Positions 159-62,271 of a DNA stretch of 64,000 nucleotides are shown piece after piece. A model generated the notes under the pieces. The model made no database searches. It worked only from the letters and a program-made list of their open reading frames with translations, and was not told the DNA's origin. The stretch lies in the NCBI GenBank assembly GCA_037137535.1, contig JBAXKC010000007.1:1-64000 (forward strand). Direction: 5' to 3'. The DNA is from a bacterium. GTDB lineage: Bacteria > Cyanobacteriota > Vampirovibrionia > Gastranaerophilales > JBAXKC01. Every line of letters begins with the position of its first letter. Positions within the stretch are counted from its first letter, which is position 1. The position numbers were made by a program, and so were the translations under genes.

Positions 159-2108
159 TTATAAAAGGGGATAATTTCTACTTTTGAAGTTATCTATAGC
201 TCTATCCAGATCAGGATTTGATGAGTTTTGCGAAACTGTAGATTGTTGAATCGACTGAATATTATTAGCGTTTAATGATTTAGCAAATAGTTTATGAGGA
301 TTTTCAACTTGTGTAGGAGCTTTACCTGTTTTTTCAAGTTCTTTTTTATGTTTATAGTCCGTCCACATTGCACAACCTTTAGGAATAATAATACCAAGAG
401 TTACACAAGCATAAGCAAGACCTGCAAGGATTGAGCCATTCTTAATCGACTCAAGATGGTGTTTAATTTCATGTGCAGCATTTTTAAGAATTTCCTTCTC
501 TTCAGCAGGCGTTACAGATTTTTTTATAATCTCATTTTTATGAGCTTCAACAAAATTCTCTGCAAAATAACCTATTTCTCTATAAGATTTAGTTGATGCA
601 TCATTAACTTCAATCAGCCAATTTCTAGTTTTATCTAAAAAAGGAACATGATTTTTAATAAAGTTTATAGAGTTAGTTCTTAATTCATTTAATCTTAACA
701 ATGAAACAAAATTACCTAATGGCCCCTGTTCAAGAGAATCAATAACTTTACCCATATTGCCTTTATCAAAAGCTTTATCACTAAGATTAAATATTGCTCC
801 AATCTGTCTTTCTTTTCCATCAACACTAATTTTACGATCATAGGTTTTAAGAACATCAGGAAGTTTTACGTTCTTCGATAAAGCCCACGCTGCAAAGTTT
901 GCAACAAGAGTAGGAATAAACATAAAGTTAGCAAAAGCTACACCACATTTAATTGTTGCTTCGGCACGCTCATTTTTATCTCTGCAAGCAGTTAACCTGC
1001 CTGTAATATTAGCAGGATAAATCCATGCTTTAAGAATACTTGCATCTGGAAATAATCCACCAAAAGACACCTGTTTTTTAAGTTTAGTTTCTTGAGCTGT
1101 TTGAGGAGGCGTAACTGCCTTAGGCTCAACTTTATTTTCTACTTTTTTAGCCCCTTTATCAGCATCGCTATATCCGACAAATGCGTCTTTTCCTGTACGT
1201 TTTTTAGTCAAGTATCTGTTAATATGCTGAATACTGAAAGTTAAAGCACCAACAACTGCTAAAGTAATGCCAAACTTGAACTTATTTAAGGATTTAAGTT
1301 GTTCAATTTTAGTGCCGACTTCATCACTATGTTTAGAAAATACTTCCTGACATACTTTATGAGTATCTCTTACAAGCTGTTCAAGACTTCCTTCAATATG
1401 ATGATCTCCGACCTTTTCAGTGAGAACTTTATCACAAGCACCTAAATGCTTACCGATAGGATCCATAATAGAATCTAAAACAGTTCGTTGCAATTTTTTT
1501 TCAGCATTAGGATTTATAATTTCATTAAGATTAGTTCTTGATTCTATCGCATTAATTAAAGCCTCTGTAGCATCTTTAAAAGCTGGAGTTCCTTCCTTTA
1601 AAGACTCCTTAAGGTTTATTCCTGATTTAGGACTAAGATTTTTAAAAACATTACGAACTACAGTATCTATAGCTTCTTTCGGATTTGTGTTATTACCTGC
1701 TTTTTTCCAATGCTCACCCAGAAAATCCAGCGACTTATTTGAAACATCAAAATTCTTATTAACACCTGGTAAAATCTTGAGTGCTTTTAATCCAAAAAGA
1801 GTTATTCCAGTTGAAAGCGCACCATATAAAAGATAATTTACTAAAATACCGCCAAGTTGAAATACAGATGTTTCAATTCCTGCCTGCTTATTTCGATGAA
1901 AATCCAGCCAAGTTTGAGGAAGAACCATCGATACCATATTAATTCCAAGTAGACTTGCTACTTCATTTTCTTTTAATTTACAAAATTTTGTTACGACATG
2001 ATTATCCAAAAGACCATTAAAACTTACTTGATCTTTCTTCTTGTTCTCATGAGAAGAAAGTTTGGGATAATTATATGAAAAACGATTATGAAGCCCTATA
2101 TTGGTCAT
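159..2108 (-). CDS. Orphan multi-helix membrane protein with two VSFxG motifs (candidate secreted substrate)
   Basis: Long ORF; ATG at 2108 is preceded by a GGAG RBS; QVSFNG near the N-terminus and QVSFGG mid-protein, each followed by hydrophobic helices. Confidence 0.75.
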   Translation of the reverse strand: MTNIGLHNRFSYNYPKLSSHENKKKDQVSFNGLLDNHVVTKFCKLKENEVASLLGINMVSMVLPQTWLDFHRNKQAGIETSVFQLGGILVNYLLYGALSTGITLFGLKALKILPGVNKNFDVSNKSLDFLGEHWKKAGNNTNPKEAIDTVVRNVFKNLSPKSGINLKESLKEGTPAFKDATEALINAIESRTNLNEIINPNAEKKLQRTVLDSIMDPIGKHLGACDKVLTEKVGDHHIEGSLEQLVRDTHKVCQEVFSKHSDEVGTKIEQLKSLNKFKFGITLAVVGALTFSIQHINRYLTKKRTGKDAFVGYSDADKGAKKVENKVEPKAVTPPQTAQETKLKKQVSFGGLFPDASILKAWIYPANITGRLTACRDKNERAEATIKCGVAFANFMFIPTLVANFAAWALSKNVKLPDVLKTYDRKISVDGKERQIGAIFNLSDKAFDKGNMGKVIDSLEQGPLGNFVSLLRLNELRTNSINFIKNHVPFLDKTRNWLIEVNDASTKSYREIGYFAENFVEAHKNEIIKKSVTPAEEKEILKNAAHEIKHHLESIKNGSILAGLAYACVTLGIIIPKGCAMWTDYKHKKELEKTGKAPTQVENPHKLFAKSLNANNIQSIQQSTVSQNSSNPDLDRAIDNFKSRNYPLL

Positions 2109-2148
2109 CTGATCTCCAAATATTCTCATCCCATCCACTACATGTATA

Positions 2149-2176
2149 TAAAAACATTATTATATGAGAATTTGCC
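2149..2176 (-). promoter_or_regulatory. GGCAA-N16-GTTTTTA upstream box
   Basis: Same bipartite motif and spacing as upstream of 43271 and 45660. Confidence 0.55.
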
Positions 2177-2436
2177 ATGCATGAAAAGCTCTTTTGTGAT
2201 TTAAAAGCCAAAATTCAGATATATCAAAAGATATCGAGATTATAACAATTTGAAGTATTGTTAACATTTCTTATTTTTCGCTAATGTTATTAATTATTTT
2301 GTTGTATAGGGAATAAGTATTTCATATTAAAATTACTTAAAAAAAAATGATATTTTAGTCAATTTTATTTATGTTTAGCTTTATTATGAATATAATAATT
2401 AAAGCCACAATGCTAAAGGAAAAGGAAAAACAGTTT

Positions 2437-18064: not shown

Positions 18065-19666
18065 TTATTCTTCAATAACTAAAATATTACCTTTGATTGA
18101 ACCGTTTGATTGTGCTAAATAATCTTCAACAACCGCTCTTGAATTATCACCTGTGTAAACAACACCTGTCTGTTTATCAACGTTCTTTTCAAAGTTCTTT
18201 TTAACTTCATTAGGGACATGGTATTTTCCGTTTACAACATCTCTAGAACCTTGAATGATAGCGTTTGATGTTCCAAAATCATCCCAATTACCATGAGCAA
18301 CATGAGCAACCACTTTTAATCCGTCTTTCAATGCGCCCGGGATAGCATCTTTACCGAAATCATATTCCCCTTCTTCAGGATGATGCTCAGCAAGCGACTT
18401 TAAGAATTTAGGACTTGCAATATAAATAGCAGTATTCGCAAGGTATTCGCCTTTGTGCTTACCTTCTTTAATTAATCCCATTTCAGCGGCTTCTAAATTT
18501 TTTGGTTTTTCGATGAATTTTTGAATATTTTTATCATCATCCATTCCGATAATACCAAAACCACTTACATGATCAGGAGGAACAGGAATACCGACAATCA
18601 TAAGATCTGCTTCTTTAGCATTAAATTCATCAAGAGCTTCTGTTATCTCAAAGTCAGAGAAAGCATCTGCAGAGCAAATGATTGCAGGTTTATCAGCAAG
18701 TTTTGGATCTTTTTCAATAGCTTGATAAACTGCACCTGCATTTCCCGCTTTTCCTACTTCTTTACTGAATTCAGGCTTTGTATCAGGAGCTATAACTCCA
18801 CCTTTTACTCCCATAGCAAGACTGTTATCAATCAAGTGTGAACCATCTGCCATTGCAATTGAAGGTTTGCACATTTCATTAAGTGTAATATCATTTGTTC
18901 TTGTACCAAAACCACCAGCGGTTGAAAGGAAGTTGAACTTATCAAATTTTGCATGATTTTTTTGATATTGTTTTTCAAATGCGTTGAAAATACCTTTATC
19001 AAATGAACCTTCTACATCATTTTTCAATTCTTCTGCTTTATAGGAAGTTAAAACGACTAATTTCCCTGCAAAAGAGACTTGTTTTTTAGCTGAAGGCATA
19101 TTTAACTGAACATCATCAGTTTTAACTTCTGATCCTGCTTTACAAATTAAAACAATATTTTTCCCTGGTTTATTAGGATTAGGAATTTCAATTCTGATTG
19201 CTTTTCCTGAAGCACCTGTCATTGCTTTAACAGTTACTTTATTATTATCGGTTTTCTTTTTAGCAGTTGCTACAACATTACCGTCAATATCAGTAACATA
19301 GACTTTACGCTCTCTTGTTCTTGTATCTGTATCCCATTCAACTGTTAAAGGAGCATAAATTTTATCAGGTTTTTTCCCTGCCTTAGGCTCAGTCCAATCT
19401 TTTTCTTTTTTAGGCTCATATGAACGAACTTTAGATTGTCCAAGTTGAGTGTCGCCTTCAAATATATCAACAACTCTTGAATTATCACCATCACCTTTAA
19501 ATGATATTGTTGATAAAGCCATTGATTTCAAAGCATGAGCTCCTTGTGAACTTACTAATTCTTTTTGATTTACAGTTGCTTTATTTTCTACTTGTTCATG
19601 TTTCTTTTCTGCTTTAGCTGTCTTTTGAAAAAATGCTGAAGAAACATTTGAAATTTCAAATGCCAT
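18065..19666 (-). CDS. GlgC-like sugar-phosphate nucleotidyltransferase with a long N-terminal extension carrying ISFKG and VSFAG motifs
   Basis: AGGFGTR, KPSI, GNAGAV, FGII, FIEKP, DFGKDAIP, WDDFGT; about 240-aa non-enzymatic N-terminal region. Confidence 0.8.
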   Translation of the reverse strand: MAFEISNVSSAFFQKTAKAEKKHEQVENKATVNQKELVSSQGAHALKSMALSTISFKGDGDNSRVVDIFEGDTQLGQSKVRSYEPKKEKDWTEPKAGKKPDKIYAPLTVEWDTDTRTRERKVYVTDIDGNVVATAKKKTDNNKVTVKAMTGASGKAIRIEIPNPNKPGKNIVLICKAGSEVKTDDVQLNMPSAKKQVSFAGKLVVLTSYKAEELKNDVEGSFDKGIFNAFEKQYQKNHAKFDKFNFLSTAGGFGTRTNDITLNEMCKPSIAMADGSHLIDNSLAMGVKGGVIAPDTKPEFSKEVGKAGNAGAVYQAIEKDPKLADKPAIICSADAFSDFEITEALDEFNAKEADLMIVGIPVPPDHVSGFGIIGMDDDKNIQKFIEKPKNLEAAEMGLIKEGKHKGEYLANTAIYIASPKFLKSLAEHHPEEGEYDFGKDAIPGALKDGLKVVAHVAHGNWDDFGTSNAIIQGSRDVVNGKYHVPNEVKKNFEKNVDKQTGVVYTGDNSRAVVEDYLAQSNGSIKGNILVIEE

Positions 19667-19788: not shown

Positions 19789-20733
19789 TTATAATTTAAT
19801 ATAACTTTTAATTTTATTTTTTTCTGAAATAAATTCTGTTTGACTAACCGTCAAAGAATCTTTATTTTTTTCTGCTTTTTCAATATGGAACAAAGCATCT
19901 TCATATTCATTAGTTAGACTGAATACTCTAGCCATAGCAAAATGCAAATCACCGTTATCAGGACTTTGCATTATTGCAGATTCAATTATATCAAGTGCTT
20001 TGTCATACTCTTTCAGATAAACAAGGATTGAATAATAAGTTTTATAGGCAGCTATATCTTTAGGATTTAACTCAACAGTCTTATTTAAACAGGTCAAGGA
20101 TTCTTTTACATCACCCTTTTCATAATAAAGGCACGCTAAATTATAATAAGCCCAACTGTAGTCGGGATTTATGGCTAAAGCTTTTTGATAACCGTCAATT
20201 GCCTTATCCAGCTCTTTAAGTTTTTTATATTCAAAAGCAAGGTTAAAATAAGCAAAAGCATCCTTTGGATTATATTTTATAGTTTGCTCTAAATGATAAA
20301 TAGCCAAATCGATCATATTCTGTTTTGAATAGATACAACCTAAACAAAAATGAGTATTTGAATCCTCCAAATCAAGAGATAATGTTATTTTATATTCATT
20401 AATTGCTTCTTTTAAATTTTGCTCTTGTTCATATATAAAAGCAAGATTATAGTGATAGTCAGGCTCATCGGGAGCAAGACTTATTGCCTTTTGATAAGCC
20501 GTTTTTGCATTATTAAATAATTTCTGCTTTTCATAAACTATCCCCACATTAAAATGCAAATCTGCATTTTGAGGAAAAATTTTCAACAAAAGCTTATACT
20601 GTTCAAGCGCTTCAATTAAAAGATTTTCCTCTAAAAGAGCATCAGCATACTCTCTCCTTAGTTTATAATCGGAAGGAGTTTGACTAATTAATATTTTAAA
20701 AGTTTCTAACGTTTTCTTCTCTTTAAGATTCAT
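19789..20733 (-). CDS. Cytoplasmic TPR-repeat protein
   Basis: Repeated HFNVG / HYNLA / YFNLA / YYNLA...YQKA..L.P units. Confidence 0.9.
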   Translation of the reverse strand: MNLKEKKTLETFKILISQTPSDYKLRREYADALLEENLLIEALEQYKLLLKIFPQNADLHFNVGIVYEKQKLFNNAKTAYQKAISLAPDEPDYHYNLAFIYEQEQNLKEAINEYKITLSLDLEDSNTHFCLGCIYSKQNMIDLAIYHLEQTIKYNPKDAFAYFNLAFEYKKLKELDKAIDGYQKALAINPDYSWAYYNLACLYYEKGDVKESLTCLNKTVELNPKDIAAYKTYYSILVYLKEYDKALDIIESAIMQSPDNGDLHFAMARVFSLTNEYEDALFHIEKAEKNKDSLTVSQTEFISEKNKIKSYIKL

Positions 20734-21483: not shown

Positions 21484-22266
21484 TTATGGATAAATTCTTG
21501 AAAATTGTGAAAAATATTGAGCTAATACATTCATAAGCAGCGGCATTGTTAAAATCAAAACAGCTATTCCTAAAACAGGCTTAAACATTGCACTTAACTG
21601 AAATACGTTAACCTGAGGAGCAGTTTTTGAAACTATACCTAAAATAACATCCATAGCAAGCGTTGCCATCAAGACGGGAGCTGAAAGCTGCATTCCTACA
21701 ATAATTACGTTAGAACTTACCATTATTAAATAATCAAGATTCATTAAAGTTTTTAATGGAAAAGCAACACCATATATCGGAAAAATCTCGAAACTTCGCT
21801 GAAAAGCCGCTATTAACCAGTATATGCCTCCTTCTTCAATAAAAATAAGAACAGACAAAAAGGTAAAGGCCTTACCGATAATAGAAGTTTGACCTCTTGA
21901 ACTCGGGTCAAACATTACAGCAGAAGATAATCCCATCTGCATGTTTATAATATCCCCTGCCGAGCCGACAGCTGACATAATAATAGTTCCAATAAGCCCA
22001 ATAATAGCCCCAACTCCGCTATTTAGCAAAATAGAAAGAAACATTGAATTATGAGGTGGAGGATTTGACGGGTTTAAAATACTAACAAAACAAATTGACA
22101 TTAGAAAAGTAAATCCCATTTTAAGCATGAAGGGAACGTCTTTACGGCTAAAAACAGGAGCTGTAGACACAAAACCAAGAAATCTTGCCATAATGTAAAG
22201 CCCTGCTTCAGTTTTCATACTGAATTCAGGAAAGTTTTTAAATACGCTAAGAAAATTTTCTAACAT
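21484..22266 (-). CDS. fliR: Type III export-gate protein FliR/SctT
   Basis: ARFLGFVSTAPVF, AGDIINMQMGLS..MFDP, GIVSKTAPQVNVF; start at MLENF, adjacent to the upstream stop. Confidence 0.92.
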   Translation of the reverse strand: MLENFLSVFKNFPEFSMKTEAGLYIMARFLGFVSTAPVFSRKDVPFMLKMGFTFLMSICFVSILNPSNPPPHNSMFLSILLNSGVGAIIGLIGTIIMSAVGSAGDIINMQMGLSSAVMFDPSSRGQTSIIGKAFTFLSVLIFIEEGGIYWLIAAFQRSFEIFPIYGVAFPLKTLMNLDYLIMVSSNVIIVGMQLSAPVLMATLAMDVILGIVSKTAPQVNVFQLSAMFKPVLGIAVLILTMPLLMNVLAQYFSQFSRIYP

Positions 22267-22267
22267 T

Positions 22268-22693
22268 TCACTTTGCCTTAAATTGTGGTGGTTGGTCAAT
22301 AATCATATTATCATTTAGCTTTAGCGGTTTTAACGGAGGCTTATCTATTTCTATCAAAGAAGCTTCATTATTCTTCTTTATCTGTTTTTGTTTAGTTATC
22401 AGTATTTTATAAATATACAAATTTGTTTTTGTCCAAACAATAAGATTAGTATCTTCCGCCTGCATTGCCGAAATAATCAACTCATAATCATCATTAAATA
22501 TTTTTGTATTTTGTTCAACCTTTAGAGCTTTTGCATTTCCAACTTCAATTTTTTTAAAGTTTTCAGAAAATTTTAAAATGTAAACATCACCTTTGTTAAT
22601 TTTAATTTGCTTAAAAACCTCACTTCTTACTGAGTTTAAAGGCATAAATATTGCTAAAAATAAGATTATAGCCGTAATAACAAAGTTTTTCAT
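22268..22693 (-). CDS. Secreted stand-alone pilus-secretin N-terminal domain (T2SS-T3SS_pil_N-like)
   Basis: Signal peptide, then KGDVYILKFSENFKKIEVGN...ELIISAMQAEDTNLIVWT, which aligns by eye to GKSQLIRFNEPVKRISLTN...ELLLNGKTAGLTSLIIWG of the secretin at 34365..35726. Confidence 0.75.
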   Translation of the reverse strand: MKNFVITAIILFLAIFMPLNSVRSEVFKQIKINKGDVYILKFSENFKKIEVGNAKALKVEQNTKIFNDDYELIISAMQAEDTNLIVWTKTNLYIYKILITKQKQIKKNNEASLIEIDKPPLKPLKLNDNMIIDQPPQFKAK

Positions 22694-22703
22694 TGTTTAC
22701 CTC

Positions 22704-23198
22704 TTATCGTTGAGAGTAAATTCTTCTTGCTTCCGCCATATTCGCACCTACTGAAGGGCCAACATTGGCTTTTCCGTAAGACTCTTTTAGCTTCTTATCA
22801 GAATAAGGCACTTTTCCAGGATGTTTCATCATAGTATCAACATCAGGACGTTTTATAAAACGAAAATCCTTTTCATCTTCATAAAATGGACGTGTTTTCC
22901 CCGGAGGTTCGGGAGCAAGGGCGTAATCACCCTGCTTTGGAATAACTTGAAGCGCCAAATGTATTGAATCTTCAAGGTATTCTGATAATATTTGTGTAAA
23001 AAGCCTACCCATCATTACAATTACGAGGAAAACAGCAAGAATTTTAGGAGCAGCTGCGATTGTTTGTTCCTGTACCTGCGTTACCGCCTGTAATATCCCT
23101 ACTACAAGACCTATACCTGCCGCAACAAGCACAACAGGCATTGAAATAATCAATGTCGCAACAAATCCTTTGGCTAGTTGTTCAAAAAGTAAATCCAC
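22704..23198 (-). CDS. fliQ: FliQ/SctS with a long C-terminal extension
   Basis: PVVLVAAGIGLVVGILQAVTQVQEQTIAAAPK; 164 aa. Confidence 0.9.
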   Translation of the reverse strand: MDLLFEQLAKGFVATLIISMPVVLVAAGIGLVVGILQAVTQVQEQTIAAAPKILAVFLVIVMMGRLFTQILSEYLEDSIHLALQVIPKQGDYALAPEPPGKTRPFYEDEKDFRFIKRPDVDTMMKHPGKVPYSDKKLKESYGKANVGPSVGANMAEARRIYSQR

Positions 23199-23217
23199 TT
23201 TTAGTATTCTCCAAAAT

Positions 23218-23859
23218 TTAATTGAAACTTTGGACGAGATTAGTGACTATAAGCCCCCATCCGTCAATTGCAACAAATATCAATAATTTAAACGGTAACG
23301 AAATAATGGTAGGGGAAAGCATCATCATACCCAGAGCCAGCAATATATTCGCAACCACAAGGTCAATGACGACGAAAGGTATAAATATCAAGAAACCAAT
23401 CTCAAAGGAGGTCTTTAATTCACTAATGATGTATGCAGGAGCTACTTCAAAAATACTTATCTCCGTAATATCCTTAGGTGGAGTTTTTCTCATTAATTTG
23501 ATAAAGAAAGCAACGTCTTTTTCACTGGTCTGCCTTAACATAAATCGCTTAAGGGGCTCAGAACCTTCCTTTATGGCTAAAGGCAGCGATCCAGTCTGAA
23601 CATAAGGTTTATTGCCCGCGTCATACATCTGTTGAAAAGTAGGCCCCATTGTATAAAAAGTCAAAATTAGTGATAAACCTATAATTACCATCCCCGGCGG
23701 AACTTGCTGTGTACCAAGAGCCGTTTTAAGAATTGAAAATACAATAGTAAATCTTAAAAAACTGGTCATACAGACAAAAACAAATGGCAACAAAGAAAAA
23801 ATCGCCATCGTTATAAGTAGCTGAATAGCGGGATCTAATGTTTTTAGCGTCTGGTCCAT
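23218..23859 (-). CDS. fliP: FliP/SctR lacking an N-terminal signal peptide
   Basis: MTSFLRF..LGTQQVPP, PAYIISELKTSFEIGF, GMMMLSPTIISLPFKL..DGW; 213 aa. Confidence 0.95.
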   Translation of the reverse strand: MDQTLKTLDPAIQLLITMAIFSLLPFVFVCMTSFLRFTIVFSILKTALGTQQVPPGMVIIGLSLILTFYTMGPTFQQMYDAGNKPYVQTGSLPLAIKEGSEPLKRFMLRQTSEKDVAFFIKLMRKTPPKDITEISIFEVAPAYIISELKTSFEIGFLIFIPFVVIDLVVANILLALGMMMLSPTIISLPFKLLIFVAIDGWGLIVTNLVQSFN

Positions 23860-23873
23860 ATTATCTCCTGAAA

Positions 23874-24281
23874 TTATTTTCGATTAATAAAATTCTTTAA
23901 CATATTACATAAAGGATTTTGCGGATTATTAAAATTTAAAAGCTCTTCCATTGGAAACTCTTTTAAAGGAAGTTTTTCATCTATTATTTGATTTTCCCCT
24001 TGTTGAATTTCAACTTGTTGAGGAATATTATTATCATCAAGTTTAGTCAGAAAATTTATGTTATTTAAATCACTTGATACTAAAAATCTTTCATTGCCTG
24101 CTTTAACAAGATAAATTGATTTTCTTGGTTCAAGAGGTAAAATTCCTTCAAGTTCAAGAAATCCGTTTTTCATTTTATTTGTTGAAAATTGTAAGGTTTT
24201 TTTAGCGATAACTATGGCAACAAAAATCAAGCCCATCATTGCCAGCATATACACTATAAAGCCTGTTAAGTGGTGATACAT
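23874..24281 (-). CDS. fliO: FliO-like protein
   Basis: N-terminal TM, then LPLEPRKSIYLVKAGNERFLVSS...INFLTKL; directly upstream of fliP. Confidence 0.75.
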   Translation of the reverse strand: MYHHLTGFIVYMLAMMGLIFVAIVIAKKTLQFSTNKMKNGFLELEGILPLEPRKSIYLVKAGNERFLVSSDLNNINFLTKLDDNNIPQQVEIQQGENQIIDEKLPLKEFPMEELLNFNNPQNPLCNMLKNFINRK

Positions 24282-24292
24282 ATTTATTTTCC

Positions 24293-25501
24293 CTATAAAT
24301 CATCATCAATTTCAAAATCACTATAATCAAAATCAGAATCATCCATTTCTTCGAGGTTAATCTGTTCGCCCTCACCCATATTTTCTGAATAATCCTCATT
24401 TGACGGTTCTTCTTGTTCCGGTTCAGCTTGTGGCTTAGGATCATGATAAACCTTATTTATCTTAACTCCATATTTATCGCCTATTATAACAAGTTCACCT
24501 GATGCAATCTTTTTACTTTCAACGCTTAAAGTTATTTCGTTTCGCACAATAGGTGCTATATCTACAACAAGACCTTCTGAAATTTGCCTTAATTCGCCAA
24601 GAGTCATTTTTATCTTTTCAAATTCGGCAGATACATCCACCTGAAGGCTATCCCATATATCTTGAATTGAACGCTGTTCCATGTCAGTCATTTCAACTTC
24701 GTCCTCATCATCAATATCCACAACAATAGAAGGATTAGGGTTTACATTAAATAATATAGGCTCATGTGCCAATATTGTCATTTGATTTAAATTACTATTC
24801 TCTAATATTATATAATCATCCGACTCAAGATTTTTTATTCCTTCGAGCGTTATTTTTGATTTTCCTACATAAATACTAGCCATAGTAGCACTTTGTTCAA
24901 ATTGCATAATATCCAGCAAGTCATTTTGCTCTTCAATATATTGTACTTGCTTATAAATAAATTCAGGGAATGATATTACTAACTTCCCCACACTTTCTTC
25001 CTCATGTTGTTCTGAATAAAGAGAAAATGTTAAATGAAGCATTTTTTTATAATTGCTGCCCTGTGATATAAATTTTAATGCTTTTTTTCCGGAAAGAAAC
25101 AATTCTTTAAAATTTTTAAAAAGATACTCAATATAAACTGTTAAAATTCGGCTTTCCAACTTTGTTATATCTTTTATTCGAATTTCTTCAAACGTTCCGT
25201 TTTTTCCACCAAGAGAATTATACAAAACAATACCGGCGGCATCGGACGAAATTTTAAAAGTAATAGCGCATTTATCATTAAGGCTTATTTGAGTAACAAA
25301 AAACTCTTCACCTTTCCAAATATTATCATTAGAAGTCATTGAGATCAGCTTAAAATATAAATTCGCATTAAGAATAGAATGACTTATTTCTTGTAAAGAA
25401 GGGCAAAATGCATTTTCAAACATGGTAAAACTGCGGCTATAATCAAGATGACCACTATATCCGTCACTTTCTATATGATAATTATGCTGAGAACTCGTCA
25501 T
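24293..25501 (-). CDS. FliM/FliN-family C-ring protein with two SpoA domains (SctQ-like)
   Basis: SIYVGKSKITLEGIKNLESDDYIIL and VSAEFEKIKMTLGEL...IASGELVIIGDKYGVKI; GGAG RBS before MTSSQ. Confidence 0.85.
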   Translation of the reverse strand: MTSSQHNYHIESDGYSGHLDYSRSFTMFENAFCPSLQEISHSILNANLYFKLISMTSNDNIWKGEEFFVTQISLNDKCAITFKISSDAAGIVLYNSLGGKNGTFEEIRIKDITKLESRILTVYIEYLFKNFKELFLSGKKALKFISQGSNYKKMLHLTFSLYSEQHEEESVGKLVISFPEFIYKQVQYIEEQNDLLDIMQFEQSATMASIYVGKSKITLEGIKNLESDDYIILENSNLNQMTILAHEPILFNVNPNPSIVVDIDDEDEVEMTDMEQRSIQDIWDSLQVDVSAEFEKIKMTLGELRQISEGLVVDIAPIVRNEITLSVESKKIASGELVIIGDKYGVKINKVYHDPKPQAEPEQEEPSNEDYSENMGEGEQINLEEMDDSDFDYSDFEIDDDL

Positions 25502-25568
25502 TTTACTCCGCCCGACACTATGCATTCTTTAATTTTAATGATGATATAAAGACAGTAAACCCCTAATA

Positions 25569-28098: not shown

Positions 28099-28121
28099 CC
28101 GGATAGCAATTATTATTTTGG

Positions 28122-30572: not shown

Positions 30573-30585
30573 TTAAATCTACTCC

Positions 30586-31575: not shown

Positions 31576-31586
31576 AAAAACTCAAA

Positions 31587-33113: not shown

Positions 33114-33127
33114 TTGTTATGAACCTC

Positions 33128-34363
33128 CTACTTTCCGTTTTTTGTTAGTCTGCTTAAAAAAGGTGATATAGACTTCATACTAAATAAGCTTTTATTCTTT
33201 TTAGCCTTTCCTTGAAATTTATTGTCTCTTACTATAACAGAATTACTCAACAATGCGGCTAATTCCATAAAACTTTGACTAATATTAGAATTAGGGTCAA
33301 TTTTAGAAATAGGAACACCTCTGTTAATAGCAGACATTACGGACAAGTAATTATTAGGAAACTTCCAATATACAGAATGCCCTAAAGCATCTTCAACATC
33401 TTCAACCGTAATTTCTTCATTAGGCATATAACGGTTGATAATCAACTTTACTTTATCTTCGTTATAATCAAGCCTGTTAAACAGGTCAATACATCTTTGA
33501 GAGTTTCGTATAGTAGGAAGATTTACCATTGAAACCAGAAGAATATTATCCGAGTTATCAAGTGAACACAGCGTTTTACTGTCAAAATTACTGCTTGTAT
33601 CAATAATTATGTAGGAAAAAACTGATTTTAATATACTGAGAACAGTATTAATCTGCTCAGAGGTAATTTCCTCAGCCTGCTCCAAATATGGAGGGTCTGC
33701 GAGTATATACAAATCTTTATCTTTATATTTTTCAAGAGTGCTTAGAAGAAATGACTCATCAACCCTGTTTAAATGAGTAACAACATAAGAAATATCAAAA
33801 GAAGGAGAAATATCCAAAAAGGTTGTCACATCGCCAAGTTGAAGGTTCAAATCAAGTAAGGCCACTTTTTTACCTGTAAGATCCGCAAGACTCACCGCAA
33901 GATTAGCGGCAATTGTAGTTTTTCCAATACCACCCTTGTTGCTGAAAACTGTTATTATTTTGCTCTGATGTCTTTCTTCATTATCAACATTAATAATGCT
34001 TTTAGCCTTATCAAGTGCATTTTTAAGCTCGTTTGTCTGAATTGGCTTTGATAAAAATTCTCTTGCCCCTGCTCTCATTGTCTTTAAAACAATATCTGTA
34101 CTTACATCAGACGAAGTTACAAAGATAATAGTGTTTTTAGCTTGAATAGAAAGTTTTTCTATTACTTCAAGAGCATACTCTTCATTATCAGATATATCAA
34201 TAATCGCAACAGACGGTTTGTCCTGAATAATAGCATTATAGCCTGCGACTAAAGTATTATAATCTCCGATGACTTTAACATTTGGCATTTCATCTAAAGT
34301 GCTTTTTAGTATTGGGCTTTGATCCTCAAAGCTGTCAACCACTATCATTGAGATTAAATCCAT
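33128..34363 (-). CDS. cpaE: CpaE/TadZ (receiver-like domain plus MinD/ParA-like ATPase)
   Basis: MRAGAREFL receiver-like domain, KGGIGKTT, DLNLQLGD; GGAGAGG RBS. Confidence 0.9.
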   Translation of the reverse strand: MDLISMIVVDSFEDQSPILKSTLDEMPNVKVIGDYNTLVAGYNAIIQDKPSVAIIDISDNEEYALEVIEKLSIQAKNTIIFVTSSDVSTDIVLKTMRAGAREFLSKPIQTNELKNALDKAKSIINVDNEERHQSKIITVFSNKGGIGKTTIAANLAVSLADLTGKKVALLDLNLQLGDVTTFLDISPSFDISYVVTHLNRVDESFLLSTLEKYKDKDLYILADPPYLEQAEEITSEQINTVLSILKSVFSYIIIDTSSNFDSKTLCSLDNSDNILLVSMVNLPTIRNSQRCIDLFNRLDYNEDKVKLIINRYMPNEEITVEDVEDALGHSVYWKFPNNYLSVMSAINRGVPISKIDPNSNISQSFMELAALLSNSVIVRDNKFQGKAKKNKSLFSMKSISPFLSRLTKNGK

Positions 34364-34364
34364 A

Positions 34365-35726
34365 TTATAAGCCCTCTCCTGAAACATTGGAATCGATAAT
34401 TCTAGGAGTTACAAATATTAAAAGCTCTGTTTCATCTTTTCTTATATCAGATCTCTTAAAGAAATTACCTATAATCGGTATATCGCCTAAAGTAGGGATT
34501 TGGTCTTTTGATGAATTATCTGTTCTTTTCAACAGTCCCGCAATAACAAGAGTCTGACCGTCCATTAACTGAACAGTAGTTTCAGCTTTTCTTGTTTTAA
34601 ATCCGTAAATTTTTGAATTTTGATTTGTAACAGTTACGGTAGAATCTATTTCACTTACCTCAGGAATTATATTTAATGAAATAAGTTTTGATTCAGGCTG
34701 TATAGTAGGGGTAAAAGTAACATTTACACCTGTATCTTTATATTCATAAGATACATTTCCGCCTTCACCGATACCGCTTGGAACAGGAACTTGATAACCT
34801 GCGTTAAAACTGGCTTTATTGCCATTTGTCGAAACAAGTTTAGGCTCTGCAAGTATTTTAACAAGACCTTTTTGCTCTGCCATACTTAAAGCAGTACTTA
34901 CGCTTTGAGAATTAAATCCAAACCCTCTTAATCCCTTTGAAATATCCGGCTCAAAAGACATACCGTATTGATTCCCCGATATTGCCGTAGCAGCACTTGG
35001 AATAACACCAAATGTAAAATTATCAGCATATCTGCTTAATGCGAAACTTGAACTTATTATTTTTGTAAACGAACGAGCAGCTTCTGTAACTTTAACTTCA
35101 AGTACAATTTGAGGAGTTTTACATTCAGAAAGATCAACAAATTTATAGCCGTATGCTTCAGTTATACTTTTAATTTTATCTCTTACAATAGAAGAAGAAA
35201 CATTTCCTGCAAGTATAACATTTTCAGAATTAGTAAATTTTAAATCCACTTTTTCATTCGGATATACTGATCTGACAGCTTTTAATAAAATAGTAGGATC
35301 ATTTTTAATATTCAAATCAAAGAAAACAGGTTCACCTGTTTCTCCCCATATAATTAAACTTGTTAAGCCTGCTGTTTTACCGTTTAAAAGCAATTCATTA
35401 GGCGAAAGCATTATTATATCGGCAAGTGAAGGATTTGTTAAAGATATTCTTTTTACAGGCTCATTAAATCTTATAAGCTGAGATTTCCCCACAAAAGCAG
35501 TCATTTCAGAAATACTACCTTTTAAATCAGCGTTAACTTTTTCCGTAGGAGTAAAAAAGGTATCAGAAATTTTTCTGGAGGCTTTATCATCAATAGACAA
35601 AGGAGAAAGATTCATTTCTCTAAGCTGTGGAGCAGCATCAGCATTAACCGACTGCGAACAAGAGAATAAAAGCGCAATTGATAACAAGCCAAATATTATA
35701 TTTTTTTTCTGATAATTATAGTTCAA
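34365..35726 (-). CDS. cpaC: Tad secretin CpaC/RcpA
   Basis: Signal with lipobox-like LFSC, pil_N domain, ILAEPKLV...ASFNAG, TLVIAGL, IPTLGDIPIIGNFF..ETELLIFVTP. Confidence 0.92.
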   Translation of the reverse strand: MNYNYQKKNIIFGLLSIALLFSCSQSVNADAAPQLREMNLSPLSIDDKASRKISDTFFTPTEKVNADLKGSISEMTAFVGKSQLIRFNEPVKRISLTNPSLADIIMLSPNELLLNGKTAGLTSLIIWGETGEPVFFDLNIKNDPTILLKAVRSVYPNEKVDLKFTNSENVILAGNVSSSIVRDKIKSITEAYGYKFVDLSECKTPQIVLEVKVTEAARSFTKIISSSFALSRYADNFTFGVIPSAATAISGNQYGMSFEPDISKGLRGFGFNSQSVSTALSMAEQKGLVKILAEPKLVSTNGNKASFNAGYQVPVPSGIGEGGNVSYEYKDTGVNVTFTPTIQPESKLISLNIIPEVSEIDSTVTVTNQNSKIYGFKTRKAETTVQLMDGQTLVIAGLLKRTDNSSKDQIPTLGDIPIIGNFFKRSDIRKDETELLIFVTPRIIDSNVSGEGL

Positions 35727-35737
35727 CTCATTTACCT

Positions 35738-36694
35738 TTAATAATCGCTGTTAAAATTAACTTCTGACTTAACATTTGCCTGAATAAGCTCTACTGATTT
35801 TGTATGCTGCAACTTTGGAGCAGCTGGTAGCGGCAAGCCTGACGAAGAAATAGCCGGAAGTGTCGGAACTCCGGAAATGGAAGGGACTTCAGGAAGTTTA
35901 TAACCAGGGATTATTGATCCATAATTATGACCTGAACTTGAAGCTGAATGCCTTTTCTTATAAGACTTGTTTCCGATAATTTTTTTATCTGTAAAATTTC
36001 TAGCCACAACTTGAAGCTTTCCACTCATCATTGCATCAACTATCCTTGCCGAAGAGCCTGCCGGAATCTGAAAGGTTATTGCTGTTGCCTTTATTACAGA
36101 TTGAGCTGTGCCATCAGGCACACCTTCTAACGAGATTATCTTTACGTTTTGCAAAATAAGCTCAGGCTGTTCTGTCGCTGTTTTTGCCATTGAAATAATA
36201 TCAACATAACTTCCTTTTGTAATATAAGAAGCTAAGCCTTGAATATAGGACACAGGAATGGATATAGCCCTCATTCCTTCAGGAAGATCAAGCCCGGCAA
36301 AACTATTTTCCATTACATCGCTATTTTTTATAAAATCTCCTGCCTTTATGGCTTTTGCACTGATTTTACCAACAAGAGAATATAAATTATTTGATACATC
36401 GGGTGGCATTAATTTTGCGTTAATTTGCTTTGCTTCCATCATTTCTGTGGTTAACACAACGCCTGAAGGGATATTTTGTCTTGAAACAACAGCAAGATTA
36501 GAATTAACAACATTAACACCGCTTTGCAAATTTTGTGATAATCTGCCAAGTTCTGTTTTTTGAGATTGCAGCTCTTTACTCAAATCCTGAATTACCGCAT
36601 CTTTTTTAGTAAAAGATGTGAATATACCAAAAGCGGAGATAATGCCTGCTGTAACCGCTATCATTATTTTTTTTCTATTTGACTTTGAACGCAT
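35738..36694 (-). CDS. cpaB: Flp pilus assembly protein CpaB/RcpC
   Basis: TM, SAF-like domain, LPEGMRAISIPV...G..VDII, ILQNVKII. Confidence 0.9.
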   Translation of the reverse strand: MRSKSNRKKIMIAVTAGIISAFGIFTSFTKKDAVIQDLSKELQSQKTELGRLSQNLQSGVNVVNSNLAVVSRQNIPSGVVLTTEMMEAKQINAKLMPPDVSNNLYSLVGKISAKAIKAGDFIKNSDVMENSFAGLDLPEGMRAISIPVSYIQGLASYITKGSYVDIISMAKTATEQPELILQNVKIISLEGVPDGTAQSVIKATAITFQIPAGSSARIVDAMMSGKLQVVARNFTDKKIIGNKSYKKRHSASSSGHNYGSIIPGYKLPEVPSISGVPTLPAISSSGLPLPAAPKLQHTKSVELIQANVKSEVNFNSDY

Positions 36695-43270: not shown

Positions 43271-45598
43271 ATGAACACTAATAATAGTGTAAATTTTTTT
43301 TCAACAAATAATCTATATAAACTACCTGAAAAACAACTTTCTCAGGTAGCTATAAAAACTACTGAGCTTGAAAACGATAAATTTGAATTATCAACAGCCT
43401 CTAAACAACCTGAAAATAAAAAAAATAATAATTTATTAATGTATGCGACTATTTTATCAACAGCAGCAGCAACTATTCTTGGGGCAATCGTCTTACATAA
43501 AAATGGACTTTTGGCAGAAGTAAAAACTCAGTTATCTTCTAAAGAGACTCATCTTAATGAAATAAATCAAAAAGTTAAAGAAACCTTAAAAAATTCACAA
43601 GCACTTGAAAATGAATTAGCAAAATTAAAAGAACAAGCTCTTAAATCTGCTGATGAGGCTTTAAATAAAACTGTTGAAACATTACAAAAAGAAAAACAGG
43701 CTCTTGAAACAAAAGCCCAATTATTAGAACAACAACTCAAGCAAGCAAAAAATAGTAACACAGCAGAAGTTTCTGAACTTAAACAACAACTTAACATCCT
43801 AAATACCGAAAAACAAAAACTTGAGCAAAATGTTAGAAACCTTGTAGCTGAATCAAAAAGCAAAGACGGCATTATCAATTCACTTCAACAAGATATTTCA
43901 CAAATAAAAACTGCTTCCGATGAAGCTACTAAAAAACTTGCTGACTTGCAAAAATCAGCTTTAGAAGCTGCTGATCAAAAGTTAAATAAAGCTGTTGAAA
44001 TTTTACAAAAAGAAAAACAAGCTCTTGAAGAAAAAGCAAATACACTAGAGCAACAACTTCAGCAAGCAAAAAACAGTAACACAGCAGAAGTTTCTGAGCT
44101 TAACAAACAACTTAACAGTCTAAAAACCGAAAAACAAAAACTTGAACAAAATGTCAATAAACTTGTAACTGAAACAAAAAGCAAAGACGGCATTATCAGT
44201 TCACTTCAACAAAAAATTGAACAAATAAAAACGGAGTCCAATGAGGCTACTCAAAAACTTGTTAAAATAAATCAAGCCGCTTTAGAAGCTTCTGATAAAA
44301 ACTTGCAGAAGGCTGTTACAGATTTAAAAACACAAAAAGCAGAAATTGATAAATTAAATAAAGAATTAGAAGACTCTCTTAGAACTCAATCTTCAAATTC
44401 TGCTGAAATTACAAACCTAAAAGCTAAGGTTAAAGAATTAGAAAACAAAAATATAGAATTAAATAAAAATATTGGAAAAGTTGAAAATGAAATAATCTCA
44501 GGCATTCAATCCAAACTTTCTAAAGTAGAACATCCTGCCGTTGGCAAACAAGTAAAAATAAATCTTGAAAAAGACGGTGAATTTTTCATCGGAAGAGAAG
44601 CTTCACCTAGCTGTATAGAAATAACAGACAGCGGTAAAGTAAGTCGAACTCATTTAAAATTAAATATAAAAAATGGAAAAGTTGAAATAACTGATGTTTC
44701 TGCAAATGGAACACTATTAAACGGTAACATTATTCAAAAAAACAAACCAATAACGATTAACAAGTTAGATGAAATTCAAATAGACAATACTATCTATTTA
44801 TTTGACGGTAAAGAGCTTAAAACCTTAACAAATGATGCTGAAACATACAGAGAAATGTTTAATTCAGGAATTAAAGATCTTCCCTTTTATCAAGGTCAGA
44901 ATGGCAATTGCTATGCTTTAAGCGGCTTTGATTCTTTAAGAGCTATGCCAGATGCCAAATGTTATCTTGCAAACATGATTTCTAAAGAAAAAAATGGAGA
45001 TATAATTGTAAACTTTGCAGGAGTAAAAGAAGGAGCAGGAAAAAAAATAATCATAAAAGCGGCGGAACTACCTTCAATACTTAATGACCCTGAGGCAGTA
45101 ATATCCTCTAATGGTTTAAAAATAATTGAACGAGCTTATGGGCATCTTATAAAGGCTGAAAGACAATCTTTAAACCCTAATAGTAATAAGACAATGTTCT
45201 TAATGTCAGGCGGTAGACCTGGGGACTTTATGGAAGCAATTGTACCAGGAATAAAACATCTTATTTTCTGGGGAAATGATATTGGCGATATGTCTCGTGA
45301 AGCAGAGCACCTCCCTTATGCCCTAAATATGCTTAAAAGTTTTTCCGCCAATAAAGAAAGAATGGCTTTAACAGCTGCAACCAGAAGAGGAGCAGCAGGT
45401 GGACATGAGGTGATACTTAAAACAATTGGAAATTTACAAATAGCACAAACACATGCATATAGCATAAAAAATGTAGACTTGGCCAATCAAAAGATTTTAC
45501 TTGCAAATCCTTGGGATTCTAGTGAAAAGGCTTATATTGCCTTTGATGAATTCTTTAAATTATTTGGAACTATCGACAGTATAGCTATGAAAAAATAG
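43271..45598 (+). CDS. TM + duplicated coiled coil + FHA + calpain-like cysteine protease (effector-like)
   Basis: FHA: FIGR...VSRTH...TDVSANGT; protease: QGQNGNCY...HAYSI...ANPW. Confidence 0.8.
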   Translation: MNTNNSVNFFSTNNLYKLPEKQLSQVAIKTTELENDKFELSTASKQPENKKNNNLLMYATILSTAAATILGAIVLHKNGLLAEVKTQLSSKETHLNEINQKVKETLKNSQALENELAKLKEQALKSADEALNKTVETLQKEKQALETKAQLLEQQLKQAKNSNTAEVSELKQQLNILNTEKQKLEQNVRNLVAESKSKDGIINSLQQDISQIKTASDEATKKLADLQKSALEAADQKLNKAVEILQKEKQALEEKANTLEQQLQQAKNSNTAEVSELNKQLNSLKTEKQKLEQNVNKLVTETKSKDGIISSLQQKIEQIKTESNEATQKLVKINQAALEASDKNLQKAVTDLKTQKAEIDKLNKELEDSLRTQSSNSAEITNLKAKVKELENKNIELNKNIGKVENEIISGIQSKLSKVEHPAVGKQVKINLEKDGEFFIGREASPSCIEITDSGKVSRTHLKLNIKNGKVEITDVSANGTLLNGNIIQKNKPITINKLDEIQIDNTIYLFDGKELKTLTNDAETYREMFNSGIKDLPFYQGQNGNCYALSGFDSLRAMPDAKCYLANMISKEKNGDIIVNFAGVKEGAGKKIIIKAAELPSILNDPEAVISSNGLKIIERAYGHLIKAERQSLNPNSNKTMFLMSGGRPGDFMEAIVPGIKHLIFWGNDIGDMSREAEHLPYALNMLKSFSANKERMALTAATRRGAAGGHEVILKTIGNLQIAQTHAYSIKNVDLANQKILLANPWDSSEKAYIAFDEFFKLFGTIDSIAMKK
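43637..44278 (+). repeat. 321-nt (107-aa) tandem duplication in the coiled coil, with a degenerate third copy from 44279
   Basis: Units start at 43637, 43958 and 44279; AACACAGCAGAAGTTTCTGA recurs 321 nt apart. Confidence 0.9.
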
Positions 45599-58598: not shown

Positions 58599-58603
58599 TG
58601 TTG

Positions 58604-60123: not shown

Positions 60124-60156
60124 CTAAAACCTCACTATTAATTAGTGAGGTTTTAG
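60124..60156. terminator. Terminator between convergent genes
   Basis: Perfect 14-bp stem CTAAAACCTCACTA/TAGTGAGGTTTTAG. Confidence 0.75.
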
Positions 60157-60179
60157 ACTGTTATATTTATAATTTTTTA

Positions 60180-60836: not shown

Positions 60837-60972
60837 TTTTAAATTCCTATCCTTTAAACCTATTATAATCTCTAAACAATAGATTTATACCAACTATTTT
60901 AACGAAAATTTAATAAGTTTCAAAATAATGTAAAATATTTAAAAAAACATGTATAAAAATTTCAAAAGGACT

Positions 60973-60999
60973 ATCAATATTTTTTATTTTTGGTTTTTA
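60973..60999 (+). promoter_or_regulatory. ATCAA-N15-GTTTTTA upstream box (variant)
   Basis: 36 nt upstream of the 61036 start. Confidence 0.4.
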
Positions 61000-61035
61000 A
61001 GCACTTATCAAGATTTTTATTAGTGAAAGTTTAGA

Positions 61036-62271
61036 GTGAATTATATGATTTATTCGATTAAGCCACAAACAAACTTGCAATATCACAACAAGAAAGTCGA
61101 AAATAAAAACATCAATAACTTCTCTAATAATGCTTCGTCAAAAAGCATCAATTTTACAGGAAATAATCCTGATCTTGCAACAAAAATTGCGAAATCCATA
61201 CCTGATGGAGTTTTTACATTTAAACCAATTCAAGGATTGTTTAAACTTGCACAAAAAGATTTAGCCTTATTTGATGCGGTTTTAACATTCGCATTGGTGG
61301 CGTCAATAAGACCATTAACGATTATGGCAATGCCTGGCGCAAGCAAAGAAGATAAACAATATGCCGCTACAAAAGCTATGGCTGGTGGAGCAATTGGCTT
61401 AGGTTTAACAGCCTTACTTTTTACTCCCGTTACAAAAGCTGTTAAAGGTGTATCAAAAGAACTGTTTAAAGGACTTGCTAACTCCGAGAAGAAAGAAAAA
61501 GCCTTTGAATATTTAATGAATTATGGTGCTAAGTTTATTATTGCACCGCTTCAAGCCTTTTTACTGGTGGAATCAATTCATCCTATTATGGATTTAGTAT
61601 TCCCTAAGAAAAACAAGAAAACAGAAGAAAAAAAATCTACTGAAAAGGCCTTTACCTCAAACCAAACTGTTAAATCAAATAATTCCGCAAGTTTACTTAA
61701 CATTCTTGAAGAAGCTAATAAAAATAAATCCTTAAAAACTGAAAACAGAACTGCTTTATTCTCACAAAAACCGACTGCTAAAGTTACAAGCTTTGGTGGA
61801 CTTCAATCTTTCTTTGATAATTTAATTAAAGAAAACCCTGCTACTAAAAAAACTAATCTTGATACAATTAAAAAATTTGCTCCCGCTATATCAGGGTTAT
61901 GGTTAGAAGGTTGTTATTCTACGGCTTCTATCTCTTCCGACAAAATACCTAAAGAAAGAAAAGCTCCATTAGTAATCAATCTTTTATTTACTGGAGTAAC
62001 TTCTGCGATCGGAAGTATTGCATTAGCTCCGTTTATTGAAAAATGTGAAGTTGCACTTGTAAAAAGATTTAATGAAATTAATGGAATTAAAGCTCTTGAA
62101 CAACAAGAACGAACTGTATTAGGCGAAGGCTTAAAAGCAATGCCACATATTGCAATAGCAGCAATACTTTTACATTATATTTGTCCTGTAATAGCTACAC
62201 CTATTGCAGATAAAGTGAATAAATTCCTTATTAAGCAAAATATCCTTAAAGCTCCTGACACTAAAAAATAA
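61036..62271 (+). CDS. Orphan multi-helix membrane protein with INFTG and TSFGG motifs
   Basis: Two modules, each a polar linker, an xxFxG motif and hydrophobic helices; architecture parallels 159..2108. Confidence 0.75.
   Translation: MNYMIYSIKPQTNLQYHNKKVENKNINNFSNNASSKSINFTGNNPDLATKIAKSIPDGVFTFKPIQGLFKLAQKDLALFDAVLTFALVASIRPLTIMAMPGASKEDKQYAATKAMAGGAIGLGLTALLFTPVTKAVKGVSKELFKGLANSEKKEKAFEYLMNYGAKFIIAPLQAFLLVESIHPIMDLVFPKKNKKTEEKKSTEKAFTSNQTVKSNNSASLLNILEEANKNKSLKTENRTALFSQKPTAKVTSFGGLQSFFDNLIKENPATKKTNLDTIKKFAPAISGLWLEGCYSTASISSDKIPKERKAPLVINLLFTGVTSAIGSIALAPFIEKCEVALVKRFNEINGIKALEQQERTVLGEGLKAMPHIAIAAILLHYICPVIATPIADKVNKFLIKQNILKAPDTKK

Follow-up and report, generated by a model that had tools for sequence, protein, structure and literature searches.

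Tag-bearing proteins of the locus

The DNA analysed here, hereafter the window, is the first 64 kb (positions 1 to 64,000) of contig C7 (JBAXKC010000007.1) in a 2.95 Mb assembly of 81 contigs with ~31% guanine plus cytosine (GC), from an uncultured lineage of non-photosynthetic cyanobacterial relatives. Among its genes, which include flagellar-type export-gate genes and a Tad/Flp pilus locus, are open reading frames (ORFs) whose products bear a short peptide tag centred on a single Phe residue (Table 1). The consensus is hydrophobic-(Ser/Ala/Asn)-Phe-(Lys/Thr/Ser/Ala)-(Gly/Ala/Ser), often followed by Asn or Lys. As described below, this tag is real: it is a protein-level feature that orthologues keep at the same sites, it is found in segments predicted to be flexible, and its leaders are not of the Sec type.

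A first-pass annotation of the window had picked out eight peptides as instances of such a tag, and all eight translate where and on the strands that it placed them, spread over five ORFs. They were scored with a position matrix (in bits) built from this genome's own tags; on this scale the 95th percentile of shuffled N-termini is 5.7 bits and the 99.8th is 12.2 bits. Six of the peptides are strong (VSFNG, VSFGG, ISFKG, VSFAG, LNFKG and INFTG, at 14.0-19.3 bits). Because of where the scores fall relative to the shuffle percentiles, we treat these six tags as solid, TSFGG as borderline and VNFFS as noise.

The 659-amino-acid (aa) membrane protein has ~4 hydrophobic segments. No Pfam or NCBIfam family matched it, and the ESM Atlas places it only among unnamed Melainabacteria clusters. 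The 533-aa protein is laid out as a polar leader, a tag, a small beta-rich middle, a second tag (QVSFAG) and a divergent GlgC-like nucleotidyltransferase, whose GGxGTR motif follows the second tag by ~50 residues; its scores against glgC models are far under their cut-offs. In an AlphaFold2 model built on an alignment of only six rows, both tags fall at a predicted local distance difference test (pLDDT) score <50, between parts modelled at 70-80: the ISFKG tag is at ~21-22, and QVSFAG sits inside a low-confidence linker (residues 192-238). The suggestion that the tag stands just before a folded module fits this one model, in which the tags flank folded parts. The 491-aa orphan belongs to a nine-member paralogue family with a common C-terminal domain of ~100 aa, and its eight paralogues, all on other contigs, have the tag intact in some cases and degraded in others. 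The Cys...His...Asp spacing in that C-terminal region is one that we take to resemble transglutaminase-like cysteine peptidases.

Table 1. Tagged ORFs, tag peptides and other features of the window (residues are those of the protein).
Feature	Position	Strand	Basis
659-aa orphan membrane protein, two homologous halves, tag before each	159..2138	-	translation
QVSFGG, internal tag, residues 356-361, start of second half, 15.8 bits	1056..1073	-	translation and matrix
QVSFNG, N-terminal tag, residues 37-42, 19.3 bits	2013..2030	-	translation and matrix
533-aa GlgC-like protein	18065..19666	-	Pfam NTP_transferase at residues 303-477
QVSFAG, internal tag, residues 196-201, 17.9 bits	19064..19081	-	translation and matrix
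ISFKG, tag, residues 54-58, 16.5 bits	19493..19507	-	translation and matrix
TPR protein between fliR and the GlgC-like gene, cytoplasmic-looking	19792..20733	-	Pfam TPR
Second export-gate copy: FliN-like, FliO, FliP, FliQ, ORF with weak pilus-N hit, FliR	21487..25525	-	Pfam
491-aa orphan, tag LNFKG at residues 38-42 (28271-28285), 14.7 bits	28160..29635	+	
Tad/Flp pilus locus: TadC, TadB, CpaF, TadZ-like ATPase, secretin, CpaB	29643..36694	-	Pfam
775-aa protein carrying VNFFS: long coiled coil, FHA domain	43271-45598	+	Pfam (FHA)
VNFFS, residues 7-11, 5.2 bits (below the 95th percentile), not counted as a tag	43289..43303	+	
Membrane-anchored TPR and retropepsin-like aspartyl protease protein	56660-57802	+	
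411-aa orphan membrane protein	61036..62271	+	translation
INFTG, tag of the 411-aa protein, residues 38-42, 14.0 bits	61147-61161	+	
TSFGG, weak internal match in the 411-aa protein, residues 251-255, 8.5 bits, borderline	61786-61800	+	

Enrichment of the tag across the genome

Genome-wide counts were made over 2,439 ORFs of at least 100 aa, taken from the earliest start codon with overlaps removed greedily; under this rule some leaders may be too long, and start codons are uncertain. Within the first 80 residues of these ORFs the pattern [VIL][SN]F.G has 59 matches, compared with 16.7 +/- 3.9 (maximum 30) in 200 shuffles within those residues, a comparison that the first-pass annotation had set beforehand as a test of its proposal. 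In the remainder of the proteins the pattern is not enriched (56 matches vs 50.5 +/- 6.3). Reversed and permuted patterns give only 15-25 matches in the first 80 residues, and the N-terminal bias is lost when Phe is swapped for Tyr or Leu.

About 16 of the 59 correspond to the number expected by chance, and 15 of the 16 are parts of known domains (transketolase, CheD, glycine-cleavage P protein, MotA, MlaE, RimM, dNK, FlgB, FlgC and others) or, in one TPR protein, in a signal peptide; the sixteenth has no Pfam domain, and its leader is hydrophobic instead of polar. The other 43, which we call strict carriers, have in common a polar leader, the motif, and then often Asn or Lys. Relaxed forms of the tag, such as ITFKG, IPFKG, LAFKG, TAFSG and ISFKA, are found in paralogues of the carriers.

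Iterated self-training of the matrix yields 97 ORFs at 12 bits or above, compared with 4.6 in shuffles. This contrast is optimistic, because the matrix scored the ORFs on which it was trained. A fairer figure comes from dividing the proteome so that no blastp family spans both halves, training on one half and scoring the other: at 12 bits the halves give 22 vs 2.6 and 11 vs 1.8 matches, and at 10 bits 35 vs 8.2 and 26 vs 7.8, or ~45 excess carriers. A fair estimate of the number of carriers is about 45 to 100, which is 2-4% of ORFs.

The Ser codons used within tags are of both kinds (22 TCN and 13 AGY), and all four Gly codons are in use. Leaving paralogue groups aside, the DNA that the 5' regions of tagged genes have in common is limited to short matches of 18-45 bases. 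This synonymous variation and the shortness of the 5' matches rule out an origin at the level of DNA, whether a Shine-Dalgarno artefact or a mobile 5' cassette, and they indicate that the tag acts at the protein level. A degenerate DNA pattern for the tag was of no use for counting: it matched 68 times in this genome, and five permuted controls matched 33-69 times.

Leaders and carriers

The leader ahead of the tag is ~5-75 residues long, rich in Asn, Ser, Thr, Gln and Lys, poor in acidic residues and predicted to be disordered. Asn makes up 14.8% of leader residues vs 7.2% of N-termini overall, and Asp plus Glu 6.7% vs 11.3%. A hydrophobic segment precedes the tag in only 3 of the 97 tagged ORFs, compared with the 20% of untagged ORFs that have one within the first 30 residues, and the core of a Sec-type signal is thus absent from tag leaders. 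Within the tag, the position before the final Gly, Ala or Ser is most often Lys (30 of 97), followed by Thr (18), Ser (16), Ala (10) and Gly (7).

Single-linkage clustering by blastp divides the 97 tagged ORFs among 86 unrelated families. No Pfam domain was found in 34 of the 43 strict carriers vs 15 of 99 untagged neighbours, a comparison set that had been scanned for other reasons (Fisher p = 3e-13). The tag is therefore shared by unrelated and mostly orphan proteins with a polar Ser/Asn/Lys-rich leader and no Sec signal, just as the first-pass annotation had it. Where a domain does follow a tagged N-terminal extension, it is a GlgC-like nucleotidyltransferase (the window protein), a GlgA-like glycosyltransferase, adenosine deaminase, HD, DHH, dual-specificity phosphatase, AAA ATPase or pentapeptide repeats; the tagged adenosine deaminase, HD, GlgA-like and GlgC-like proteins each have an untagged paralogue elsewhere in the genome. 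A membrane-like segment occurs somewhere in 30 of the 97 carriers, within 60 residues after the tag in 13, and nowhere in the other 67.

Proteins carry one to three tags, at N-terminal, internal and C-terminal positions, and some tags begin only 1-8 residues after the initiator Met. Internal matches of at least 12 bits number 24, vs 11-19 in shuffles, and the best dozen have the full polar context; among these convincing cases are both internal tags of the window, one near the end of the deaminase (residue 452 of 477) and one close to the C-terminus of a large protein (residue 1488 of 1508). In one family, two tagged genes lie side by side in one version and are fused in another, with the inner tag retained. 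An NCBIfam scan of 40 tagged proteins gave no model that fits the leader, Pfam has none either, and the literature searched yielded nothing on such a tag in Melainabacteria or Vampirovibrionia.

Two observations concern the genes themselves. On contig C25, five tandem and near-identical ORFs of 111-115 aa (C25:29118-30881) each carry a tag, VAFSG at residue 23. For about a dozen tagged genes, the region 55-95 nucleotides upstream of the start contains a TAGCAAT(T/A)T box, often trailed ~20 nucleotides on by a T-rich TATA-like stretch; in the window, a TAGCAAT box stands before the gene of the 491-aa orphan, in the region of 28104-28110. The TAGCAAT box occurs upstream of 13 of the 97 tagged vs 44 of 2,285 untagged ORFs, reverse and permuted words show no enrichment, and the box may be a shared promoter or operator. 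No neighbouring gene family is enriched around tagged genes beyond what its size allows, and a dedicated neighbouring chaperone was rejected as a candidate on that ground.

Conservation among relatives

The 659-aa membrane family is confined to this order, in which 26 of 31 genomes have it, all 14 of family f2 included; none of 66 genomes from other families of the class does. In ten homologues that are 27-34% identical, the Phe and Gly columns of the N-terminal tag are kept wherever the region is retained, the consensus at the internal tag reads K-x-x-F-x-G-x-x-P, and the leaders drift freely. Four further families of the order supply homologues of the GlgC-like protein, from five genomes in all. 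Each has two or three tags and keeps one ~50 residues ahead of the catalytic GGxGTR motif. Across the six homologues (27-32% identical) the first 250 residues have just five invariant positions, M1, L51, F56, G151 and F199, and F56 and F199 are the Phe residues of the ISFKG and QVSFAG tags. Homologues of the tagged deaminase in two f3 genomes have VRFMG, IAFRG, VNFQG or VAFRG in their extensions. Judged from these alignments, the tag is kept in position in orthologues that are ~30% identical, at N-terminal and internal sites alike, and the comparisons support the view that it is under selection.

Enrichment in relatives was gauged in ten genomes, nine sampled over 200 kb apiece and one over 105 kb; diverged versions of the tag could escape a matrix trained on the present genome. 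Eight of the ten belong to other orders (G004, G017, G022, G006, G050, G080, G039 and G001) and together gave four matches of at least 12 bits in 1,312 ORFs vs 2.2 expected by shuffling; at the hold-out rate of the present genome, ~18 would be expected. The low-GC G022 and G050 (33-34% GC) are among those without enrichment. Within the order, G095 (family f14, 83 ORFs) has three clear tags, and relaxed patterns are in excess there (7 vs 2.5 +/- 1.3). In the small genome G030 (f2, of the same order, 32% GC), the 172 ORFs sampled include two clear tags, a number too small for a verdict on enrichment.

These results bear on the idea that the tag has no common function and arises from low-GC composition, from wrong starts or from a common first beta strand. 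The genome is indeed 31% GC and Asn/Lys-rich, and the earliest start was always taken. We nevertheless find this idea scarcely credible and regard it as largely refuted, because composition-keeping shuffles fall far short of the observed count, permuted motifs are flat and hold-out confirms the excess; because low-GC relatives show no enrichment (G022 and G050) or none that is detectable (G030); and because Phe is invariant across distant orthologues and the tag recurs in so many unrelated families.

Another reading is a role in processing, in which a dedicated endopeptidase would cut at the tag, with Phe or Gly at P1, to remove the leader and part the modules; cleavage of this kind may pair with sorting or coexist with docking. 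In both the two-halved membrane proteins and the GlgC-like proteins every module has a tag ahead of it, the family that is known as two adjacent tagged genes keeps its internal tag when fused, and one invariant residue flanked by small or hydrophobic positions would resemble the subsite pattern of a protease. However, no protease co-varies with the tag, and cleavage at tags 2-10 residues from the start would free almost nothing. The membrane-anchored protein of the window that combines TPR and a retropepsin-like protease was considered as the processing enzyme and rejected, since its distribution differs from that of the tag: full-length homologues are scattered over families of the class, other orders included, and occur in only 4 of the 14 f2 genomes, compared with 14 of 14 for the tagged membrane family. 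On balance, we regard processing as improbable.

Flagellar-type export genes and other machines

This genome encodes two complete flagellar-type export cores, with two copies each of FlhA, FlhB, FliP/Q/R, FliF and FliI. FlhA is on contigs C3 and C13, FlhB on C3 and C21, and FliF and FliI on C36 and C13 (outside the window, C3:62058-67096, C13:60-11444, C36:1727-8066 and C21:47287-48312), and one FliP/Q/R set is on C3, in a copy with the order fliP-fliR-flhB-flhA. In the window copy, FliP/Q/R lie at 21487-23859, and FliO and the FliN-like gene extend the group to 25525. Between fliQ and fliR, an ORF (22271-22693, minus strand) weakly matches a pilus-formation N-terminal region (E 4.6e-5), and the FliQ ORF (22707-23198, minus strand) is 164 aa long from its earliest start, of which the FliQ family (Bac_export_3) covers residues 8-75 only. 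Across the class sample, most FlhA-bearing families have two full-length FlhA copies; a single copy occurs in f2, f7 and f8, and FlhA is absent from f4 and f9.

Four further ORFs encode nothing of FlhA but its cytoplasmic C-terminal domain, FlhA-C (C34:182-1675, C60:3193-4608, C2:107681-109057 and C27:25204-26991); two of these are soluble and two lie behind two membrane segments. The soluble 497-aa form on C34 joins a small conserved N-domain to a coiled coil and then FlhA-C; full-length orthologues of this form occur in 30 of the 31 genomes of the order. Nothing on FlhA-C-only proteins surfaced in the literature searched for this analysis. The soluble FlhA-C-only protein and residues 25-85 of the GlgC-like protein, co-folded on alignments of 14 and 6 rows respectively, scored 0.00, a value that counts neither for nor against an interaction.

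The GlgC-like gene is on the same strand as, and downstream of, fliR and the TPR gene. The TPR protein has no hydrophobic N-terminus and is a candidate reader of the tag. In relatives, the genes that precede the GlgC-like homologue are a GTPase gene and RNase HII (G104 and G101), a glycosyltransferase gene (G086) and a TPR gene (G084): the gene is next to fliR in none of the four relatives whose flanks were read, and a TPR gene precedes it in one. In a rough count from gene lists, made without a formal test, tagged genes were not seen to cluster with flagellar genes.

Other machines could also be imagined to take tagged proteins as cargo, namely the Tad pilus, a contractile injection system or a double-glycine exporter of the peptidase-ABC type. 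The Tad locus adjoins one tagged gene of the window, the genome has one phage-type contractile sheath gene (C35:10328-10858), and the last tag position is Gly, Ala or Ser, like the -1 position of double-glycine leaders. Sheath genes, however, occur in only 8 of the 31 genomes of the order, in none of five f2 and none of three f14 genomes, although f2 and f14 carry tags and the tagged membrane family reaches 26 of 31; the distribution expected for cargo of a contractile system is thus not seen. The VipB (sheath of the type VI secretion system) and VirB4 families have no match in this genome. With the sheath sporadic in the order and these families unmatched, contractile injection systems and type VI and type IV secretion systems were rejected as readers. 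Apart from the one shared border, no link between the tag and the Tad locus was found, and Tad is not known as an exporter of other proteins. Double-glycine leaders have Gly at -2 and Gly, Ala or Ser at -1; only 7 of the 97 tags have Gly at -2, and the rule does not hold for them. We therefore consider cargo status for any of these machines very unlikely.

As for the remaining protein of Table 1, the C-terminal part of the 775-aa protein has no Pfam match; by eye it may contain a papain-like Gln...Cys pattern.

Likeness to known export signals

Bryant et al., 2022 (PMC8983047) describe a two-part signal in early rod and hook subunits of the flagellum, consisting of an extreme N-terminal hydrophobic signal and a gate-recognition motif at ~residues 36-40 through which the subunits dock on FlhB-C, and they give for Salmonella a spacing of at least 26 residues between the two. 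The tag resembles such a signal in lying in an unstructured N-terminal region and in being built on one Phe. Its enrichment in the first 80 residues and the pLDDT below 50 at the modelled tags fit the N-terminal location of early substrates, although there are about a dozen internal or C-terminal copies as well. In the present genome, 9 of the 13 early-type flagellar proteins read have hydrophobic-x-Phe-x-(Gly/Ala/Gln/Asp) at residues 27-49, namely FlgE, one of two FlgF/G-like proteins, FlgB, FlgC, a second FlgB, FliE, an FlgG-like and an FlgC-like protein and a weak FliK-like ORF; none of the seven flagellin-family ORFs read has a hydrophobic-x-Phe-x-small motif. The motif of FlgB here aligns with the equivalent conserved segment of solved FlgB chains. 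At least one small hydrophobic residue is present at positions 2-5 in 93% of tagged vs 84% of untagged ORFs (p = 0.02), a difference to be read with the uncertainty of the start codons in mind. The tag differs from the early flagellar signal in continuing as Lys-Gly-Asn, in having conserved internal copies and in its carriers, which are dozens of non-flagellar proteins, membrane proteins among them.

Leaders with few acidic residues and much Asn, Ser and Thr are typical of type III signals more broadly. Injectisome effectors and translocators combine N-terminal signals that lack a sharp consensus with a short peptide bound by TPR class II chaperones. The polar, disordered N-termini of tagged proteins, their orphan or enzyme-like character with housekeeping paralogues, and the presence, in an export-gate operon, of a gene for a cytoplasmic TPR protein next to a tagged gene are all reminiscent of such cargo. 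In contrast to injectisome systems, only flagellar-type parts were identified here, and the tag has a sharp consensus.

The likeness to Sec, Tat, prepilin and double-glycine leaders is limited to an N-terminal extension that looks cleavable and a small residue at its end. Type IV prepilin and Flp leaders have Gly followed by Phe (or the Flp motif) and then a hydrophobic helix; the order in the tag is Phe-x-Gly, the reverse of Gly followed by Phe, and the 67 carriers without a membrane-like segment have no such helix.

A proposed role for the tag

The tag is probably an address or docking label. We tentatively propose that it is a docking tag read by flagellar-type type III machinery, a reading that is possible and that we put forward with considerable reserve. 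In this proposal, the tag would be a lineage-specific short linear motif behind a disordered leader, read as an address on the cytoplasmic side of the membrane. The likeliest reader would be a part of the flagellar-type export machinery, with the cytoplasmic domains of FlhB or FlhA and the order-specific soluble FlhA-C paralogue as candidates. By mimicking the hydrophobic-x-Phe docking region of rod and hook subunits, the tag would route or recruit non-flagellar proteins to a flagellar-type machine. We infer the docking itself, the identity of the reader and the outcome, be it export, recruitment or processing.

Several observations weigh against this proposal. High-scoring tags also lie at internal and near-C-terminal sites, and the internal ones are conserved, which a general docking motif or a cleavage site would explain better than an N-terminal export signal. 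Membrane segments are present in 30 of the 97 carriers, 13 of them within 60 residues past the tag, and the GlgC-like, GlgA-like and AAA carriers need nucleotides, so that their release into the medium would be pointless. The docking motif does not correspond in detail either. The gate-recognition motif reportedly reads Phe-x-x-x-hydrophobic, as given in work by Evans and colleagues of 2013, and this consensus is not followed: the residue four after Phe is hydrophobic in 31 of 97 tags vs a background of 0.36, and one of the residues three or four after Phe is hydrophobic in 44 of 97 tags vs 0.61 after any Phe in untagged N-termini. In addition, 37 of the 97 tags start fewer than 26 residues from the start of the protein, breaking the Salmonella spacing. 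The synteny of the GlgC-like gene with fli genes is not kept in three of the four relatives examined. Finally, six of the sampled genomes from other orders have FlhA, five of them in two full-length copies, and show no enrichment of the tag; the remaining two, of family f4, have no FlhA.

The first-pass annotation had assigned the tagged proteins to a fli/tad export system and expected tag and apparatus to occur together. Of this, the connection to flagellar-type type III export is plausible, given the two export cores and the related motif in rod, hook and FliE proteins; the Tad connection found nothing in its favour, and co-occurrence with the apparatus does not extend to the six FlhA-bearing genomes of other orders.

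Several of the points that are awkward for export would be accommodated if the tag were a cytoplasmic docking motif for a hub unrelated to export, which would gather soluble enzymes and the cytoplasmic ends of membrane proteins at a scaffold, membrane domain or pole peculiar to the lineage; clamp-binding and CheR-binding peptides offer analogies. Tags lie in predicted flexible segments, one to three per protein and at N-terminal, internal and C-terminal positions; soluble and membrane-anchored proteins carry them alike, nucleotide-dependent enzymes among them; both tags of the two-halved membrane family would face the same side; and tag abundance does not track the presence of a type III secretion system. 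A general docking motif would have no need, however, of the strong N-terminal bias that we observe (97 tags of at least 12 bits vs 24 internal matches, with 11-19 expected), and no candidate hub emerged, there being no neighbour family enriched beyond its size. We rate such a hub as a somewhat doubtful possibility.

A stronger form of our proposal for flagellar-type docking can also be stated. The order would have evolved a five-residue code centred on Phe and taken over from the segment by which rod and hook subunits dock; a gate component, or the order-specific soluble FlhA-C ring serving as a sorting platform, would read it, so that 50-100 non-flagellar proteins, enzymes and membrane proteins among them, would be exported by or assembled at a flagellum-derived machine. 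In this full form we think the scenario unlikely. If it is true, no type III-type signal before this one would have had a sharp sequence consensus, and sequence alone would suffice to predict a large secretome or recruitome.

Sorting and docking tags address proteins in cells, and the discovery of each has brought to light either an unfamiliar machine or a fresh use for a familiar one. If the tag described here is read by a flagellar-type machine, the non-flagellar cargo of that machine would be predictable, with the invariant Phe as a clean mutational handle. If the reader is another, the tag would point to an unknown hub or protease that organizes many lineage-specific proteins. In either case, the tag marks ~2-4% of the ORFs in this uncultured lineage and is as old as the divergence of the order, and through it a large share of Melainabacteria orphan genes gains a first clue to function.

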